Of a stretch of DNA of 64,000 nt, positions 3,462 through 64,000 are shown in pieces. The first letter of the stretch is position 1, and every line of letters begins with the position of its first letter. A model generated the notes under the pieces. It did not search any database, was not told the origin of the DNA, and saw nothing but the letters and a program-made list of their open reading frames with translations. The stretch covers positions 466,713 through 530,712 of the forward strand of contig CAWFYH010000004.1 of NCBI GenBank assembly GCA_963819985.1, in the 5' to 3' direction. This DNA comes from an uncultured Actinomycetota bacterium (GTDB lineage: Bacteria > Actinomycetota > Actinomycetes > DATJPE01). Both the position numbers and the translations under genes were made by a program.

Positions 3462-3534
3462 GCCCTCGTAGCTCAGGGGATAGAGCAACGGTTTCCTAAA
3501 CCGTGTGTCGGCAGTTCGATTCTGCCCGGGGGCA
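3462..3534 (+). tRNA. tRNA-Arg (anticodon CCT)
   Basis: 73-nt cloverleaf read by hand. Acceptor GCCCTCG/CGGGGGC (one G-U), D-arm GCTC-AGGGGATA-GAGC, anticodon arm ACGGT-TTCCTAA-ACCGT (CCT at 3495-3497), T-arm GGCAG-TTCGATT-CTGCC, discriminator A. CCA is not encoded. Confidence 0.85.
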
Positions 3535-3651
3535 CAAGCACCCGACTGGCAACGTCGGACCCAGTTCGGGGACCATCCTCCGGGCACGCCAACGCCGGGG
3601 ACCGTGCCTGGGCGCAGGCCCTGAGATCCACGGTCTGTTGGCGGTAGATTC

Positions 3652-7811: not shown

Positions 7812-10121
7812 ATGAGGGTCATGGCCCAGATGGGCATGGTGATGAACCTCGACAAGTGCATCGGGTGTCACACCTGCTCGGTCACCTGCAAGCAGACCTG
7901 GACCAACCGGGCTGGGGTGGAGTACGTCTGGTTCAACAACGTCGAGACCCGACCCGGCCAAGGTTATCCGCGCCGCAATGACGACCAAGAGACGTGGAAG
8001 GGTGGCTGGAAGCTCAACCGGCGTGGCCGGTTGGCGCTGCGCTCCGGTGGCCGACTGCGCCGCCTGTTGGGGATCTTCGCCAGCCCGGTGCTACCCGAGC
8101 TCGAGGACTACTACGAGCCCTGGACCTACGACTACGCCAACTTGATCGATGCCCCGCTCGGTGATGACTTCCCGGTCGCTCGACCGAAGTCGCTGATCAC
8201 CGGCCAAGACACCAAGGTCACCTGGTCGTCGAACTGGGACGACAACTTGGGTGGCGCAACTGAGTACGGCCACCTCGACCCGATCGTGGAGAAGCTCCGG
8301 GCCGAGTCCTCGGACAAGATCAAGTTCGAGTTCGAGCAGACCTTCATGTTCTATCTGCCACGAATCTGCGAGCACTGTCTGAATCCTGCCTGTCTGGCCT
8401 CATGTCCCTCGGGGGCGATCTACAAGCGGACTGAAGACGGCATCGTGCTGGTGGACCAGGACAAATGCCGAGGGTGGCGACAGTGCATCACCGCCTGTCC
8501 GTACAAGAAGATCTACTTCAACCACAAGACAGGCAAGGCCGAGAAGTGCACGTTCTGCTACCCCCGCATCGAGGTCGGCCTGCCCACCGTGTGTGCCGAG
8601 ACCTGCGTGGGGCGGCTGCGTTACATCGGGTTGTTCCTCTACGACGCAGACAAGGTCACGGCGGCAGCATCCCAGCCCGATGACCAGGACCTGTACGAGG
8701 CGCACCTCGACCTGATCCTGGATCCGACTGACCCCGAGGTGATTGCGGGTGCTCGGGCTGAGGGCATCCCGGACGACTGGATGGATGCCGCCCGCAGGTC
8801 GCCGGTCTATGCCCTCGCGAAGAAGTACAAGGTCGCGCTGCCGCTGCATCCCGAGTTCCGGACCATGCCGATGGTTTGGTACGTCCCGCCGTTGTCGCCG
8901 ATCGTCGACCTGCTGAGGGACCAGGGGCACGACGCGGAGGACCAGGGCAACCTGTTCGGCGCCATCGACGCCTTGCGCATCCCGGTCGAATACCTCGCCG
9001 AGCTGCTCAGCGCCGGTGATACCGAGGTCATCACCACGGTGCTGCAGCGGTTGGCCGCGATGCGCTCGTACATGCGGGGCATCACCCTCGGGGGTGAGGG
9101 AGATGAGTCGATAGCCGAGTCCGTCGGCATGTCCGGTGGCGGCTTGTACGAGATGTATCGACTGATGGCGATCGCCAAGTACGAGGACCGCTACGTCATC
9201 CCCAAGGCCCACGAGGAGCAAGCCCACGACCTCGAGGAGATGGGCTGCTCCGTCGACTTCTACGACGAGGGACCAGGAGCGGGCATGTTCGGCGAGGCGT
9301 CTGGGCGACCGGTCCCCGTGGCGGTCGAGACCTTCGAGGCCCTCAAACGTCGACAGACCTCCGAAGGCATCGCATCCGCGGAGTCCATGCACGGTCGGGT
9401 CAATCTGCTCAACTGGGACGGCGTGGGGGTGCCCGTCGGACTGTTCCCCGGAGTGCAACGACGTGAGCGGCAGCGACGACGCTGGAGACGGCCGATGAGC
9501 ACCCGAGTGGTCCACCAGGTCGCTGCCCGGTGCCTGGACCACCCGCAAGGAGCGTTGCTGGCTTGCCTCCCGGATCTGCAGTCTGCCGTCTGGGTGCTGC
9601 CAGCTCGCCAACGCGACTCTTTCCAACCGTTGCTGGACCACCTGACTGAAACGCCGCTTCCGGTCCTTCAACGCGAATACGTCGACGTGTTCGACATGAC
9701 CAAGAAGCACGCGCTGTACCTTTCGTACTGGACCGACGGCGACACCCGGCGGCGCGGCGAGGTGCTCGCGGCGTTCAAGGCGCGCTACCGCGCGAGCGGC
9801 TGGTTGGTCGACACCCACGGCGAGCTGCCGGACTACCTACCGATGGTCCTCGAGTACGCAGCCCTCGCCGACCCGGTCGATGGGCCTGTGCTGCTTCAGG
9901 AGTACCGAGCGAGCCTGGAGCTGCTCAAGTTCGCGCTGCGCGCCGCGCAGACACCGTATGCAGGTGTGCTCGATGCCGTCTGCGACACCCTTCCGGGTGC
10001 CTCGCCGAAGGATGCTGCGGCGGTCCACCGGCTAGCCGCAGAAGGCCCCCCACGCGAGCAGGTCGGACTCGATGCTTACGATCCGCGATTGCTGTCGATG
10101 GCCGCTGGAGGGTCCCGATGA
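7812..10121 (+). CDS. narH: respiratory nitrate reductase beta subunit with a NarJ (Mo-cofactor assembly chaperone) region fused in frame
   Basis: The N-terminal 561 aa are classic NarH (four Cys clusters CIGCHTC..., CEHCLNPAC..., CRGWRQC..., CTFCYPR...). There is no stop before an in-frame ATG at 9495. After it comes a ~208-aa NarJ-like region (LQREYVDVFD...GELPDYLPMVLEYAAL). The stop overlaps the narI start. Confidence 0.85.
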   Translation: MRVMAQMGMVMNLDKCIGCHTCSVTCKQTWTNRAGVEYVWFNNVETRPGQGYPRRNDDQETWKGGWKLNRRGRLALRSGGRLRRLLGIFASPVLPELEDYYEPWTYDYANLIDAPLGDDFPVARPKSLITGQDTKVTWSSNWDDNLGGATEYGHLDPIVEKLRAESSDKIKFEFEQTFMFYLPRICEHCLNPACLASCPSGAIYKRTEDGIVLVDQDKCRGWRQCITACPYKKIYFNHKTGKAEKCTFCYPRIEVGLPTVCAETCVGRLRYIGLFLYDADKVTAAASQPDDQDLYEAHLDLILDPTDPEVIAGARAEGIPDDWMDAARRSPVYALAKKYKVALPLHPEFRTMPMVWYVPPLSPIVDLLRDQGHDAEDQGNLFGAIDALRIPVEYLAELLSAGDTEVITTVLQRLAAMRSYMRGITLGGEGDESIAESVGMSGGGLYEMYRLMAIAKYEDRYVIPKAHEEQAHDLEEMGCSVDFYDEGPGAGMFGEASGRPVPVAVETFEALKRRQTSEGIASAESMHGRVNLLNWDGVGVPVGLFPGVQRRERQRRRWRRPMSTRVVHQVAARCLDHPQGALLACLPDLQSAVWVLPARQRDSFQPLLDHLTETPLPVLQREYVDVFDMTKKHALYLSYWTDGDTRRRGEVLAAFKARYRASGWLVDTHGELPDYLPMVLEYAALADPVDGPVLLQEYRASLELLKFALRAAQTPYAGVLDAVCDTLPGASPKDAAAVHRLAAEGPPREQVGLDAYDPRLLSMAAGGSR

Positions 10122-14568: not shown

Positions 14569-15186
14569 TCAGACGCGACCGAAACTGACGTGGGAGCTGA
14601 AGATCACGCCAAGTCCGGTGCGGGTGCCCGGGCGGCTGGCGTGGTAGAGCTTGTGGTGGCCGGCGAAGATCCCGACGTGGTAGATGCTCCCGCTGCTGCT
14701 GCGGAAGAAGATCAGGTCGCCAGGGCGGGCGTGAGCGCGGCTCACGTGCTTGACCCTGGTGTACTGCGCGGCGGAGTTGTGCGGCAGGGAATGACCTAGC
14801 TTGGCGAAGACGTACCGCGTGTATCCCGAGCAGTCGAACCCAGCCGGTGAGGTTCCGGCGTAGCGGTAAGGCCCGCCGTCGTACTTGCGCGCCGTCTTGA
14901 GGATGCGCTTGGAGGTCAGGAGGTGCCTGTGCTTGTGTGCCTTGTGCTTGTGCTTGCCGCCTGTTGGCTTGACGCGGGAGAGGGCAGAAGAGCCGTGCGG
15001 ACCCTTGGCAGCACCGGAGTGAGAGCCGGCCACCGTCGCCTTTGCCGCGGGCATGGCCGGTGTCGTGAAGGCTGCGGCCGGCGAAGCCTGCACCAACGGG
15101 GCCACCAGGGCAGCTGCTGTGATCGTCGCAGCGGCCAGGAGGCGCAGCTGGGTAGGGGTTTTGGGGCGTGCAGAAGCCTTGGGCAT
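14569..15186 (-). CDS. secreted NlpC/P60 (C40) family peptidoglycan endopeptidase
   Basis: Start MPKASARPKTP (ATG 15186) gives a signal peptide. C-terminal GFDCSGYTRYVF...IYHVGIF...H is the C40 Cys-His catalytic core. Confidence 0.8.
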   Translation of the reverse strand: MPKASARPKTPTQLRLLAAATITAAALVAPLVQASPAAAFTTPAMPAAKATVAGSHSGAAKGPHGSSALSRVKPTGGKHKHKAHKHRHLLTSKRILKTARKYDGGPYRYAGTSPAGFDCSGYTRYVFAKLGHSLPHNSAAQYTRVKHVSRAHARPGDLIFFRSSSGSIYHVGIFAGHHKLYHASRPGTRTGLGVIFSSHVSFGRV

Positions 15187-15506
15187 CCCGAGCACAACAG
15201 ATCCTTCTCCGACGCCTGCGAGGTGAGCTGTCGGGTTCGGGCCGGAGCTGGCCCGGGCGATCGACCCGCACACGGCGGAACGAGCACCTTCACCCCAAGG
15301 TTGTCGCGAGCGGCCCGAGGCCGTCGTCCCAACCGTGGAACCTGTGGGTCCCCCACTCCTGCCCAACGGACTGTCACGCGAACCTCGACGTGGGGCAGGA
15401 CTCGGCGATCACGTCAAAGCGCCCCCGCCGGTGCGGGAGCGGAACGAGGCTACGTGAGGAGCCCGGCGTTTGTCACGTTTGTGTCACAGCGCGTCCCCCG
15501 AACGGG

Positions 15507-23216: not shown

Positions 23217-23591
23217 ATGAAGCGCCTGCTCGCCTTCAGCGTCCTCGCCGCAGCAGCCGTCGTGCCTGCCGTGGTTGGGCTCGCCGGAAACGCATCCTTC
23301 GCGGAGACAGTCCCGGTGCGCGTCCCAGCGCAGGCCCAAGTCGAGGATGACCCCGGTAGCAAGTCAGCCCACCTCGAACCCGGCGATGACGGAGACGACT
23401 CCAGGCACCACGAAGACGACTCCAGACACCACGAAGACGACTCCAGACACCACGAAGACGACTCCAGACACCACGAAGACGGCGACTCCAGACACAATGG
23501 GGACGACTCCAGACACAGCGAAGGCGACGACTCCAAACACCACGAAGACGACGACTCCAGACACAGTGGGGAGGGCTCAGGCCACTCGTGA
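23217..23591 (+). CDS. secreted His/Asp-rich tandem-repeat protein
   Basis: GAGGAG RBS. Signal peptide MKRLLAFSVLAAAAVVPAVVGLAGNASFA. Then about seven copies of the 8-aa unit DDSRHHED (and variants). Stop overlaps the start of the sensor kinase gene. Confidence 0.7.
   Translation: MKRLLAFSVLAAAAVVPAVVGLAGNASFAETVPVRVPAQAQVEDDPGSKSAHLEPGDDGDDSRHHEDDSRHHEDDSRHHEDDSRHHEDGDSRHNGDDSRHSEGDDSKHHEDDDSRHSGEGSGHS
23394..23570 (+). repeat. 24-bp tandem repeat array (~7 copies; gacgactccagacaccacgaagac) inside the His-rich protein gene
   Basis: Head-to-tail 24-nt units visible directly in the sequence, in frame. Copies vary at a few positions (aggcac/agacac, cacgaa/aatggg/agcgaa). Confidence 0.85.
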
Positions 23592-62027: not shown

Positions 62028-62737
62028 CTGTCGAGCAGACGCCTGCTGACTCCCCCGCTGCCGAATTCTTGACTGCTGACAGCCCGATCCGGCTGGTCAT
62101 CGTCGACGACCACCCGCTCATGCGCGACGCGCTGCGGGCGTTGATGAGTTCGCTTCCCGACTTCGTGGTGGTCGGTGAAGCAAACGACGGGCTGACCGCG
62201 GCGAAAGAGGTCCAGCTGACCCGGCCCGACGTCGTGATCATGGACCTGCACCTGCCAGGGGCCAGTGGCATCGAGGCCACCCGAGCCATCCGCGAGAACT
62301 CACCCGGCACGAAAGTTCTCGTGCTGACCATGCTGGAGGACGATGACTCGGTCTTTTCAGCCATGCGCGCCGGCGCAGCGGGCTACGTGGTCAAAGGCGC
62401 GCAGCAGGACGAGATCGTGCGGTCGATTCGTTCGGTCGCTGCTGGCCAGGCCGTGTTCGGTCCATCCATCGCCGAACGCATCAGGGACTACTTTGCGCGC
62501 GGCAGCGCGAGGGCCACCCCCCGCGCCCCCTTCCCAGAGCTGACCCCGCGAGAACGCGAGATCCTCGACCTCGTGGCTCAGGGGCGGTCCAACTCATCGA
62601 TCGCGCAGATATTGGTGATCAGCACCAAGACGGTCAGTAACCACATCTCCGCCATCTTCGCCAAACTGGCCGTGGCGGATCGCTCCGAGGCCATCGTTCG
62701 GGCCCGCCAGGCCGGCCTCGGAGGCACGACGGACTGA
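62024..62737 (+). CDS. two-component response regulator, NarL/LuxR family
   Basis: ATGA-coupled to the kinase gene. Receiver domain (VVIMDLHLPG) plus LuxR HTH (EILDLVAQGRSNSSIAQILVISTKTVSNHI). Confidence 0.9.
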   Translation: MTVEQTPADSPAAEFLTADSPIRLVIVDDHPLMRDALRALMSSLPDFVVVGEANDGLTAAKEVQLTRPDVVIMDLHLPGASGIEATRAIRENSPGTKVLVLTMLEDDDSVFSAMRAGAAGYVVKGAQQDEIVRSIRSVAAGQAVFGPSIAERIRDYFARGSARATPRAPFPELTPREREILDLVAQGRSNSSIAQILVISTKTVSNHISAIFAKLAVADRSEAIVRARQAGLGGTTD

Positions 62738-62753
62738 GTGGCTGATCGAAGAT

Positions 62754-63029
62754 TCAGCCTCCGGCAACAGCAGGTATGACCGAGACCGAACATCCGTCGG
62801 GAGTCGCCGTCCCGAGTCCCTCGGCGAACCGTACGTCGTCGTCGTTGACGTAGACATTCACGAAGCGCCTCAGCTTGCCCTCGTCGTCGAGCACGCGAGC
62901 CCCGATCCCGGGGTGCGCGCCGTCCAGCGCCGCCACCACCTCCGCGACCGTGCCACCGTCGACCGACACCTCAGCGGCGCCGCCGGTGTATTGGCGCAGG
63001 ATGGTCGGAACCCGAACGGTGACGCTCAT
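62754..63029 (-). CDS. MoaD/ThiS-family sulfur-carrier protein with C-terminal Gly-Gly (CysO/MetO-like)
   Basis: 91 aa ending ...VIPAVAGG. The start overlaps the stop of the upstream threonine-synthase-like gene (ATGA). Confidence 0.75.
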   Translation of the reverse strand: MSVTVRVPTILRQYTGGAAEVSVDGGTVAEVVAALDGAHPGIGARVLDDEGKLRRFVNVYVNDDDVRFAEGLGTATPDGCSVSVIPAVAGG

Positions 63030-64000
63030 CAGGACACAACCTCTCGGAAGGCTTCTAGGGACGGGCTGATCGTGGCAGACGGCCCGACCACCGGGGCGAC
63101 CGCATCGAGGGTTTTCAGCCCCTCCCCGGTATTCAGGATGACCGTCTCCGCCGACGGATCCAAGGCCCCACTCGCCAGCAGCGCACGCAGGACGGCGACG
63201 GTCACTCCGCCCGCGGTCTCCGCAAAGATCCCTTCCGTCTCGGCAAGCAGCCTGATCCCTTCGACCACCTGCTCGTCCGAGACGTCGCCGACGGCGCCGC
63301 CCGTCCGGCGAACCACGTCGAGGGCGTACGGCCCGTCCGCGGGATTGCCGATGGCCAACGACTTGGCGATCGTCTGCGGGCGCACGGGGCGGACCACGTC
63401 ATGACCGGCACGCCAAGCCTGGGCCACTGGTGAGCAGCCGGTCGCCTGGGCGCCGAAGACGCGGCACGGCGTCCCCTCCACCAACCCCAGGGAGGCCAGC
63501 TCCCGGAAGGCTTTGTCGACCTTGGTCAGCAACGAGCCGGACGCGACCGGAGAGACGATCTGCTCAGGAAGCCGCCAGCCGAGATCCTCGGCCACCTCGT
63601 ATCCGACGGTCTTGGACCCCTCGGCGTAGTAGGGCCGCAGGTTGACGTTGACGAAGCCCCAGTCGGACTTGTCCGGCTCTCCCGCGATCTCCGAGCACAG
63701 CCGGTTGACGTCGTCGTAGGTGCCGTCGACAGCGACCAGCGTGCCGCCATACACGGCCGTGGTCAGCACCTTGCCCGCCTCGAGGTCGGACGGGATGACC
63801 ACCACGGAGCGCAGGCCCGCTCGGGCGGCTGCAGCTGCCACGGCGTTGGCCAGGTTGCCCGTGGAGGCACAAGCGATGGTGCGCACCCCAAGAGGGCGAG
63901 CGGCGGCGAGAGCGACGGCGACCACCCGGTCCTTGAACGAGTGCGTGGGGTTGCCGCTGTCGTCCTTCACCCACAACGTCTTCATACCGAGGGCGCGAGC
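63029..64000 (-). CDS. threonine-synthase-like fold-II PLP enzyme (MetM/ThrC-like); N-terminus outside the window
   Basis: PTHSFKDRVVAVAL...IACASTGNLANAVAAAAARAGL matches the threonine synthase PLP-lysine region and glycine-rich loop. The ORF continues beyond nt 64000. Confidence 0.7.
   Translation of the reverse strand, partial: ARALGMKTLWVKDDSGNPTHSFKDRVVAVALAAARPLGVRTIACASTGNLANAVAAAAARAGLRSVVVIPSDLEAGKVLTTAVYGGTLVAVDGTYDDVNRLCSEIAGEPDKSDWGFVNVNLRPYYAEGSKTVGYEVAEDLGWRLPEQIVSPVASGSLLTKVDKAFRELASLGLVEGTPCRVFGAQATGCSPVAQAWRAGHDVVRPVRPQTIAKSLAIGNPADGPYALDVVRRTGGAVGDVSDEQVVEGIRLLAETEGIFAETAGGVTVAVLRALLASGALDPSAETVILNTGEGLKTLDAVAPVVGPSATISPSLEAFREVVS

Follow-up and report, generated by a model that had tools for sequence, protein, structure and literature searches.

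The last 1.25 kb of a 64,000-nucleotide stretch of DNA from an uncultured Actinomycetota bacterium (GenBank assembly GCA_963819985.1, contig CAWFYH010000004.1, positions 466,713 to 530,712; hereafter the window) carries, on the minus strand, a gene for a pyridoxal phosphate (PLP) enzyme resembling threonine synthase (ThrC), which runs directly into a gene for a small protein of the ThiS/MoaD type. We asked whether this enzyme makes threonine or whether the two genes form a metM-metO operon, in which the thiocarboxylate of a sulfur carrier protein would serve to convert O-phospho-L-homoserine to L-homocysteine. The comparative analyses make the metM-metO operon highly probable and support the pair as an ortholog of an already described system, the enzyme of which is usually misannotated as threonine synthase. 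A MetM-like function had been favoured by the original prediction, and it was supported by an S-adenosylmethionine (SAM) riboswitch in all 81 orthologous loci, a carrier gene adjoining the enzyme gene in 70 of the 81, active-site motifs that diverge from those of solved threonine synthases, and the grouping of the enzyme with Streptomyces orthologs.

Open reading frames (ORFs) and Pfam matches agreed in placing a ThrC-like PLP enzyme and a ThiS/MoaD-type protein ending in Gly-Gly at this end of the window, as had been predicted. The pair consists of the following features.

63029..>64000, minus strand: metM-like gene, its 3' 972 nucleotides (323 codons and the stop), matching Pfam PALP (E 2e-66) and the protein P0001 (100% identity)

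63932..63934, minus strand: AAG codon of the predicted PLP Schiff-base lysine, Lys126 in P0001 numbering, within the motif PTHSFKDR, from alignment with solved threonine synthases

63040..63045, minus strand: Shine-Dalgarno-like hexamer GAGAGG within the metM coding sequence, from reading of the sequence

63027..63031, minus strand: TGATG junction, in which TGA (63031-63029) ends metM and ATG (63029-63027) starts metO, from reading of the sequence

62754..63029, minus strand: metO-like gene for a 91-residue sulfur carrier of the ThiS/MoaD (beta-grasp) type, matching Pfam ThiS (E 1.4e-14)

The full-length enzyme is P0001 (426 amino acids), the identity being 100% across the 323 residues that lie in the window. 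The window end cuts off the 103 N-terminal residues and the 5' leader, which lie beyond base 64000, and the start that the ORF finder gave for the enzyme, the ATG at 63985, is an internal codon. The overlap of the stop and start codons claimed at the outset was present and could be sized at one shared base, but the enzyme gene proved to be incomplete, being cut by the window edge. This one-base overlap suggests translational coupling of the metM-like and metO-like genes; the GAGAGG hexamer lies 10 nucleotides upstream of the metO ATG. The carrier ends in IPAVAGG with the stop codon directly after. The E-values of the homology matches, together with the recurrence of the gene pair in 70 of 81 related loci, place it far beyond chance, and the pair is judged real.

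Since the window ends inside the enzyme gene, short of its 5' leader, the evidence on regulation was taken from relatives. A set of orthologous loci was assembled, comprising locus L001 and at least 80 loci from a scan of species-representative genomes, whose proteins were 65-76% identical to the query and whose hosts were Streptomyces, Streptosporangium, Actinomadura, Kribbella, Nonomuraea, Lentzea and many metagenome-assembled genomes (MAGs). Locus L001 encodes a 95%-identical ortholog of the enzyme, P0003, on a 504-kb metagenomic contig with a gene order identical to that of the window. Analysis of L001 revealed a complete SAM-I riboswitch aptamer at 9839-9986 (RF00162, 72 bits, gathering score 44), the end of which is 14 nucleotides from the start codon of the enzyme gene. 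An Rfam scan of 11 further loci found RF00162 above the gathering score in the same place in all 11. The 12 aptamers verified in this way were used to build an nhmmer profile, which had a match on the coding strand directly ahead of the gene in every one of the 81 loci, the best per locus reaching E 1e-14 or better. Folding of the L001 leader indicated no significant structure besides the aptamer (z = 0.10), and searches of this leader for an intrinsic terminator and for a sigma-70 promoter found neither. With no terminator of this kind detected and only 14 nucleotides separating the aptamer from the start codon, the expression that low SAM would permit is probably controlled through Rho or when translation is initiated.

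A SAM riboswitch upstream of the gene indicates an enzyme of the methionine pathway, since a threonine synthase has no reason to be controlled by SAM. It follows that the first rival explanation, namely a true threonine synthase lying beside an unrelated MoaD/ThiS protein that would help, for example, to make the molybdopterin of the nitrate reductase and formate dehydrogenase that the window encodes, meets a difficulty at once: the element found ahead of all 81 orthologs is not a threonine-related control. On this and the evidence given below, we regard this explanation as very improbable.

A homocysteine route of the kind proposed here, which the original prediction had invoked, has been published for Streptomyces albulus. 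According to the papers that cite it, the study of Hasebe et al. (2024, Appl Environ Microbiol 90:e01247-24) described S. albulus MetM as a ThrC-homologous homocysteine synthase and MetO as a sulfur carrier. A GapMind preprint (2026) states that MetO, MoeZ, Mec and MetM turn O-phosphohomoserine into homocysteine in S. albulus and that MetM is frequently misannotated as threonine synthase, and the S. albulus metM is reported to have a SAM riboswitch upstream and metO adjacent (PMC12172450). The counterparts in over 40 Streptomyces species, which show the same riboswitch-enzyme-carrier layout, were 65-70% identical to the window enzyme and about 71-79% identical to the window carrier. Streptomyces has a separate hom-thrC-thrB cluster besides the MetM-type pair, while no hom-thrC-thrB context was found around the enzyme gene in the window or among the neighbouring genes in L001, both of which speak against a genuine threonine synthase.

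Comparison of the enzyme with curated profile hidden Markov models (HMMs) showed that it scored 257 bits (fragment) and 278 bits (full-length P0001) with NCBIfam TIGR00260 for thrC, whose cut-off is 167, while TIGR01136 for cysKM gave 35.9 bits against a cut-off of 344, which sets the enzyme outside the CysK/CysM family; the score with NF006050 was 281 bits, under its cut-off of 303. By these profile matches the enzyme domain is placed unambiguously in the ThrC fold (fold-type II PLP enzymes), and the earlier reading of the enzyme as nearer to threonine synthase than to CysK/CysM was confirmed. The named database homologs were all labelled threonine synthase, the closest being from Motilibacter and Vallicoccus with 80-83% identity. 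The solved threonine synthases were 34-37% identical to the enzyme and covered residues 68-420; among the homologs in the Protein Data Bank (PDB), none covers the N-terminal zinc ribbon described below and none belongs to the MetM clade.

Placement in the ThrC family bears also on a second rival, according to which the pair would be a CysM/CysO-like cysteine synthase that combines O-phosphoserine with the thiocarboxylate of the carrier to give cysteine. In its favour, O-phosphoserine and O-phosphohomoserine are both O-phospho amino acids, and the carrier shares 55% identity with CysO of Mycobacterium tuberculosis. In Streptomyces coelicolor, moreover, the orthologs SCO4293 (named 'threonine synthase') and SCO4294 share their regulation with cysM and the cysNDCH/ssu sulfate-assimilation genes. 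The enzyme is, however, a member of the ThrC family and not of CysK/CysM, the riboswitch points to methionine and SAM and not to cysteine, Streptomyces has a separate cysM cluster of its own (SCO2910-2912), and the published activity of the Streptomyces system is homocysteine synthesis; a cysteine synthase is accordingly a very improbable reading of the pair.

To compare active sites, five solved threonine synthases were aligned with the 81 orthologs and with 70 representatives of the clade. Lys126 lined up with the lysine of SFKDR in every solved threonine synthase and was invariant in all 81 orthologs. The motifs STGNL, VNVNLRPYYAEGSKT, ASGS(L/Q)LTK, SLAIGNPADG and ETAGGV were essentially invariant across the orthologs, while the solved bacterial threonine synthases (Aquifex, Bacillus, Thermus and Mycobacterium) show STGNT, VN-SVNPxRxEGQKT, GNAGNITA, AIRIGNPASW and EPASAA instead. 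The window enzyme itself lacks the canonical ThrC motifs and has STGNL, VNVNLRPYYAEGSKT, ASGSLL and ETAGGV. By counting residues in the alignment, the replaced positions include T88, N154, S155 and R160 of the Thermus enzyme, which we take to bind the phosphate of substrate or product that steers water addition in product-assisted catalysis.

A neighbour-joining tree that included the solved threonine synthases placed the window enzyme alongside the Streptomyces orthologs within a large clade of L-R-Y signature, while the solved threonine synthases, together with one zinc-ribbon-bearing representative that has ThrC motifs, formed a separate clade of T-N-R signature. The replaced motifs and the separate clade both argue against a genuine threonine synthase. 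A homolog search at E<=1e-30 returned 1804 representatives (clusters at 50% identity), a count that probably includes canonical threonine synthases besides the MetM-signature clade.

The best PDB match of the carrier was CysO of M. tuberculosis (3dwg_C, E 5.5e-27, 55% identity), which agrees with the small protein being a CysO-like sulfur carrier ending in Gly-Gly, as had been proposed. Its identity to the carriers adjoining the orthologous enzymes had a median of 72.5%. The carrier was under the cut-off of the MoaD model TIGR01687 (36.7 bits, cut-off 49.5) and also under that of the SAMP1 model. The presence of molybdoenzymes in the window (narGHJI and formate dehydrogenase) would favour an unrelated MoaD protein beside the enzyme; against this stand the carrier's closeness to CysO and its low MoaD score, the overlap of the stop and start codons, the retention of the pair in 70 of 81 loci, and the lack, both in the 64-kb window and in the 10 kb to either side in L001, of moaE or any other molybdenum cofactor (Moco) biosynthesis gene. 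The narGHJI, narK and formate dehydrogenase genes are 50 kb from the pair and have no Moco-biosynthesis genes around them. The alternative in which the carrier would belong to a molybdopterin operon fails in this part, since the genes next downstream of the carrier gene encode a two-component system in convergent orientation.

The C-termini of the 70 orthologous carriers were VAGG in 50, AGGC in 15 and longer tails in 5. Carriers ending in AGGC, with one cysteine beyond the Gly-Gly, were found in many Streptomyces (for example L018:7254-7532, L026:7269-7547 and L049:7281-7559). As read from these termini, the AVAGGC ends and the longer tails imply that the C-terminus is processed, which fits the Mec step in the GapMind pathway, while MetO of the window should need no trimming because it ends directly in Gly-Gly.

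The arrangement of the pair was conserved together with its surroundings. A carrier homolog was found directly downstream and on the same strand in 70 of the 81 loci examined, and 20 of these 70 pairs overlap the enzyme stop codon, by 4 nucleotides or by 1. Downstream of the carrier gene in the window lie a convergent LuxR-type response regulator gene and a HisKA_3 kinase gene, then a membrane protein gene, cspA and groEL; in L001 the enzyme gene is preceded by a 300-nucleotide intergenic region, a glycosyltransferase gene, the trehalose phosphatase gene otsB and unrelated genes. Across the ortholog loci, otsA was found upstream in 61, otsB upstream in 43 and groEL downstream in 55. From this otsA/otsB ... 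cspA-groEL synteny, the locus is taken to be a vertically inherited core locus of actinomycetes.

This synteny bears on a third rival, in which the pair would insert sulfur into a specialised metabolite, such as a thio-sugar or thioamide, by means of a borrowed CysO-type carrier. BexX/CysO of Amycolatopsis is an example of such borrowing, and the second-best PDB match of the carrier, 4n6e_B, is another CysO-type protein, presumably the CysO partner of a thiosugar synthase. The core-genome synteny shared by Streptomyces, Streptosporangiales, Kribbella and many MAGs, without a biosynthetic cluster around the pair, and the regulation by a SAM riboswitch both oppose it, and it is given hardly any credence.

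The stop codons of the response regulator gene (plus strand) and of metO (minus strand) are 16 nucleotides apart (window 62735-62756), and no terminator-like hairpin was detected between the two genes, so that the convergent transcripts would overlap. In Streptosporangium saharense, an Rfam Transposase-2 RNA (70 bits) was found at L010:816-882 (plus strand), about 5 kb upstream of the metM-like gene and unrelated to the pair.

Several points weigh against the assignment of the pair as metM-metO. The enzyme still passes the cut-off of the curated thrC HMM (TIGR00260, 278 bits with a cut-off of 167), which, like the uniform threonine synthase label of its named homologs, would be expected of a genuine threonine synthase. 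A cyanobacterial homolog 51.6% identical to S. albulus MetM had both synthase and deaminase activity for threonine in vitro, while a MetM function was not clearly seen (PMC12172450); because this member of the clade shows ThrC activity, clade membership alone does not prove the reaction, and the in vitro result favours the threonine synthase alternative. The riboswitch of the window gene is inferred from the 95%-identical relative and the orthologs, and the putative orthology to the characterised S. albulus proteins rests on loci of Streptomyces spp. with the same architecture. Genes for ThiF/MoeZ, rhodanese or JAMM proteins, the activating and hydrolysing partners sought in the neighbourhood, were absent from the 64-kb window and from up to 10 kb on either side in L001.

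Searches for canonical ThrC sequences, further carriers and JAMM motifs across the window returned only the pair itself and one chance match of the regular expression in a non-coding frame. In M. tuberculosis, MoeZ is unlinked too.

In the metM-metO reading, MetO would be adenylated and converted to its C-terminal thiocarboxylate by an unlinked MoeZ-type enzyme. MetM would form the external aldimine of O-phosphohomoserine on Lys126-PLP and then eliminate the gamma-phosphate. The thiocarboxylated carrier (MetO-COSH) would attack C-gamma, in contrast to ThrC, which retains the phosphate and adds water at C-beta. The resulting MetO-homocysteine adduct would be resolved, possibly by a Mec-type JAMM hydrolase, to release free homocysteine, which would be methylated to methionine through MetE or MetH.

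Two features of the orthologs invite further, more tentative proposals. The first is an N-terminal zinc ribbon with four cysteines (CxxC...CxxC; C26, C29, C41 and C44) at residues 24-46 of P0001, outside the window. The four cysteines were invariant in 81/81 orthologs, but the ribbon was found also in some representatives with canonical ThrC motifs and is accordingly not MetM-specific. It might dock or gate the thiocarboxylate tail of the carrier, and the ribbon together with the rebuilt phosphate pocket might switch a threonine synthase to a gamma-replacing homocysteine synthase. The second feature concerns eight of the 81 loci (L004, L032, L042, L047, L050, L063, L078 and L079; for example L047:5805-7218 in Lentzea albida), which have the SAM riboswitch and the MetM-like gene and no downstream carrier gene within the available downstream sequence (at least 1.4 kb). 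These carrier-less orthologs may use a carrier encoded elsewhere, possibly CysO in trans; if true, such borrowing would mean a sulfur-carrier pool common to cysteine and methionine synthesis. Taken jointly, a docking or switch role of the zinc ribbon or the borrowing of CysO by the carrier-less orthologs is rather unlikely.

For annotation, a standard HMM would name the gene threonine synthase, while it most likely supplies homocysteine and bypasses O-acylhomoserine. For uncultured actinomycetes, the correct call alters what is predicted of sulfur flow and of methionine prototrophy. The SAM riboswitch (81/81 loci), the adjacent Gly-Gly carrier (70/81) and the diagnostic motif set are possible rules for telling MetM from ThrC.

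Other features were observed elsewhere in the window. A single tRNA-Arg gene (anticodon CCT) lies at 3462-3535 (plus strand) between the formate dehydrogenase genes and narG. In the narGHJI cluster, one 769-residue ORF at 7812-10121 (plus strand) contains both NarH (Fer4_11, Nitr_red_bet_C) and NarJ (Nitrate_red_del, residues 603-718), and is either a NarH-NarJ fusion or the result of a lost stop codon. A c-di-AMP riboswitch (RF00379, 54 bits) at 15198-15417 (minus strand) is directly upstream of a gene for an NlpC/P60 cell-wall hydrolase (about 14569-15198, minus strand). A small, secreted-looking ORF at 23217-23591 (plus strand), upstream of a histidine kinase gene, carries tandem His/Asp-rich repeats of the DDSRHHED type and possibly encodes a metal-binding protein.

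Comparison with known systems started from the canonical threonine synthases (2zsj, 6cgq, 1uim and 2d1f), with which the window enzyme has the fold-type II PLP domain in common, at 34-37% identity, along with the lysine motif SFKDR; O-phosphohomoserine is presumably the substrate of both. It differs from these structures in an extra N-terminal 4-Cys zinc ribbon region of about 70 residues and in the replacement of STGNT by STGNL, of N-S-x-N-P-x-R by N-V-N-L-R-P-Y-Y, of GNAGN by ASGSL and of EPASAA by ETAGGV. The 'moonlighting ThrC' of Microcystis aeruginosa belongs to the same broad ThrC-like clade and has an adjoining metO-like gene, but it lacks a SAM riboswitch and is a threonine synthase/deaminase in vitro (PMC12172450).

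The CysM/CysO/Mec system of M. tuberculosis (PDB 3dwg) is similar in its carrier, which is 55% identical and has the AVAGG terminus, and in its logic, a thiocarboxylate carrier serving a PLP enzyme that acts on an O-phospho amino acid. The window pair differs in that its enzyme is of the ThrC family, with O-phosphohomoserine as predicted substrate and gamma-replacement as predicted reaction, in having no adjacent mec gene, and in its SAM riboswitch control (seen in the orthologs). In the HcyS/HcyD/HcyF/MetY system of Wolinella succinogenes (Krishnamoorthy and Begley 2011), the sulfur of homocysteine likewise reportedly comes from a protein thiocarboxylate; the PLP enzyme there is reported to be a fold-type I O-acetylhomoserine sulfhydrylase, and its carrier to require proteolytic trimming.

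MetM/MetO of S. albulus has the same ThrC-homologous PLP enzyme adjoining a ThiS/MoaD-type carrier, the same upstream riboswitch (here in the orthologs) and the same threonine synthase label. The differences are that the host of the window pair is an uncultured actinomycete other than Streptomyces, that the two window genes overlap by 1 nucleotide, and that the window carrier ends in GG, while many Streptomyces are among the 15 orthologs ending in GGC. The window pair is no surprising departure from the published MetM/MetO system.

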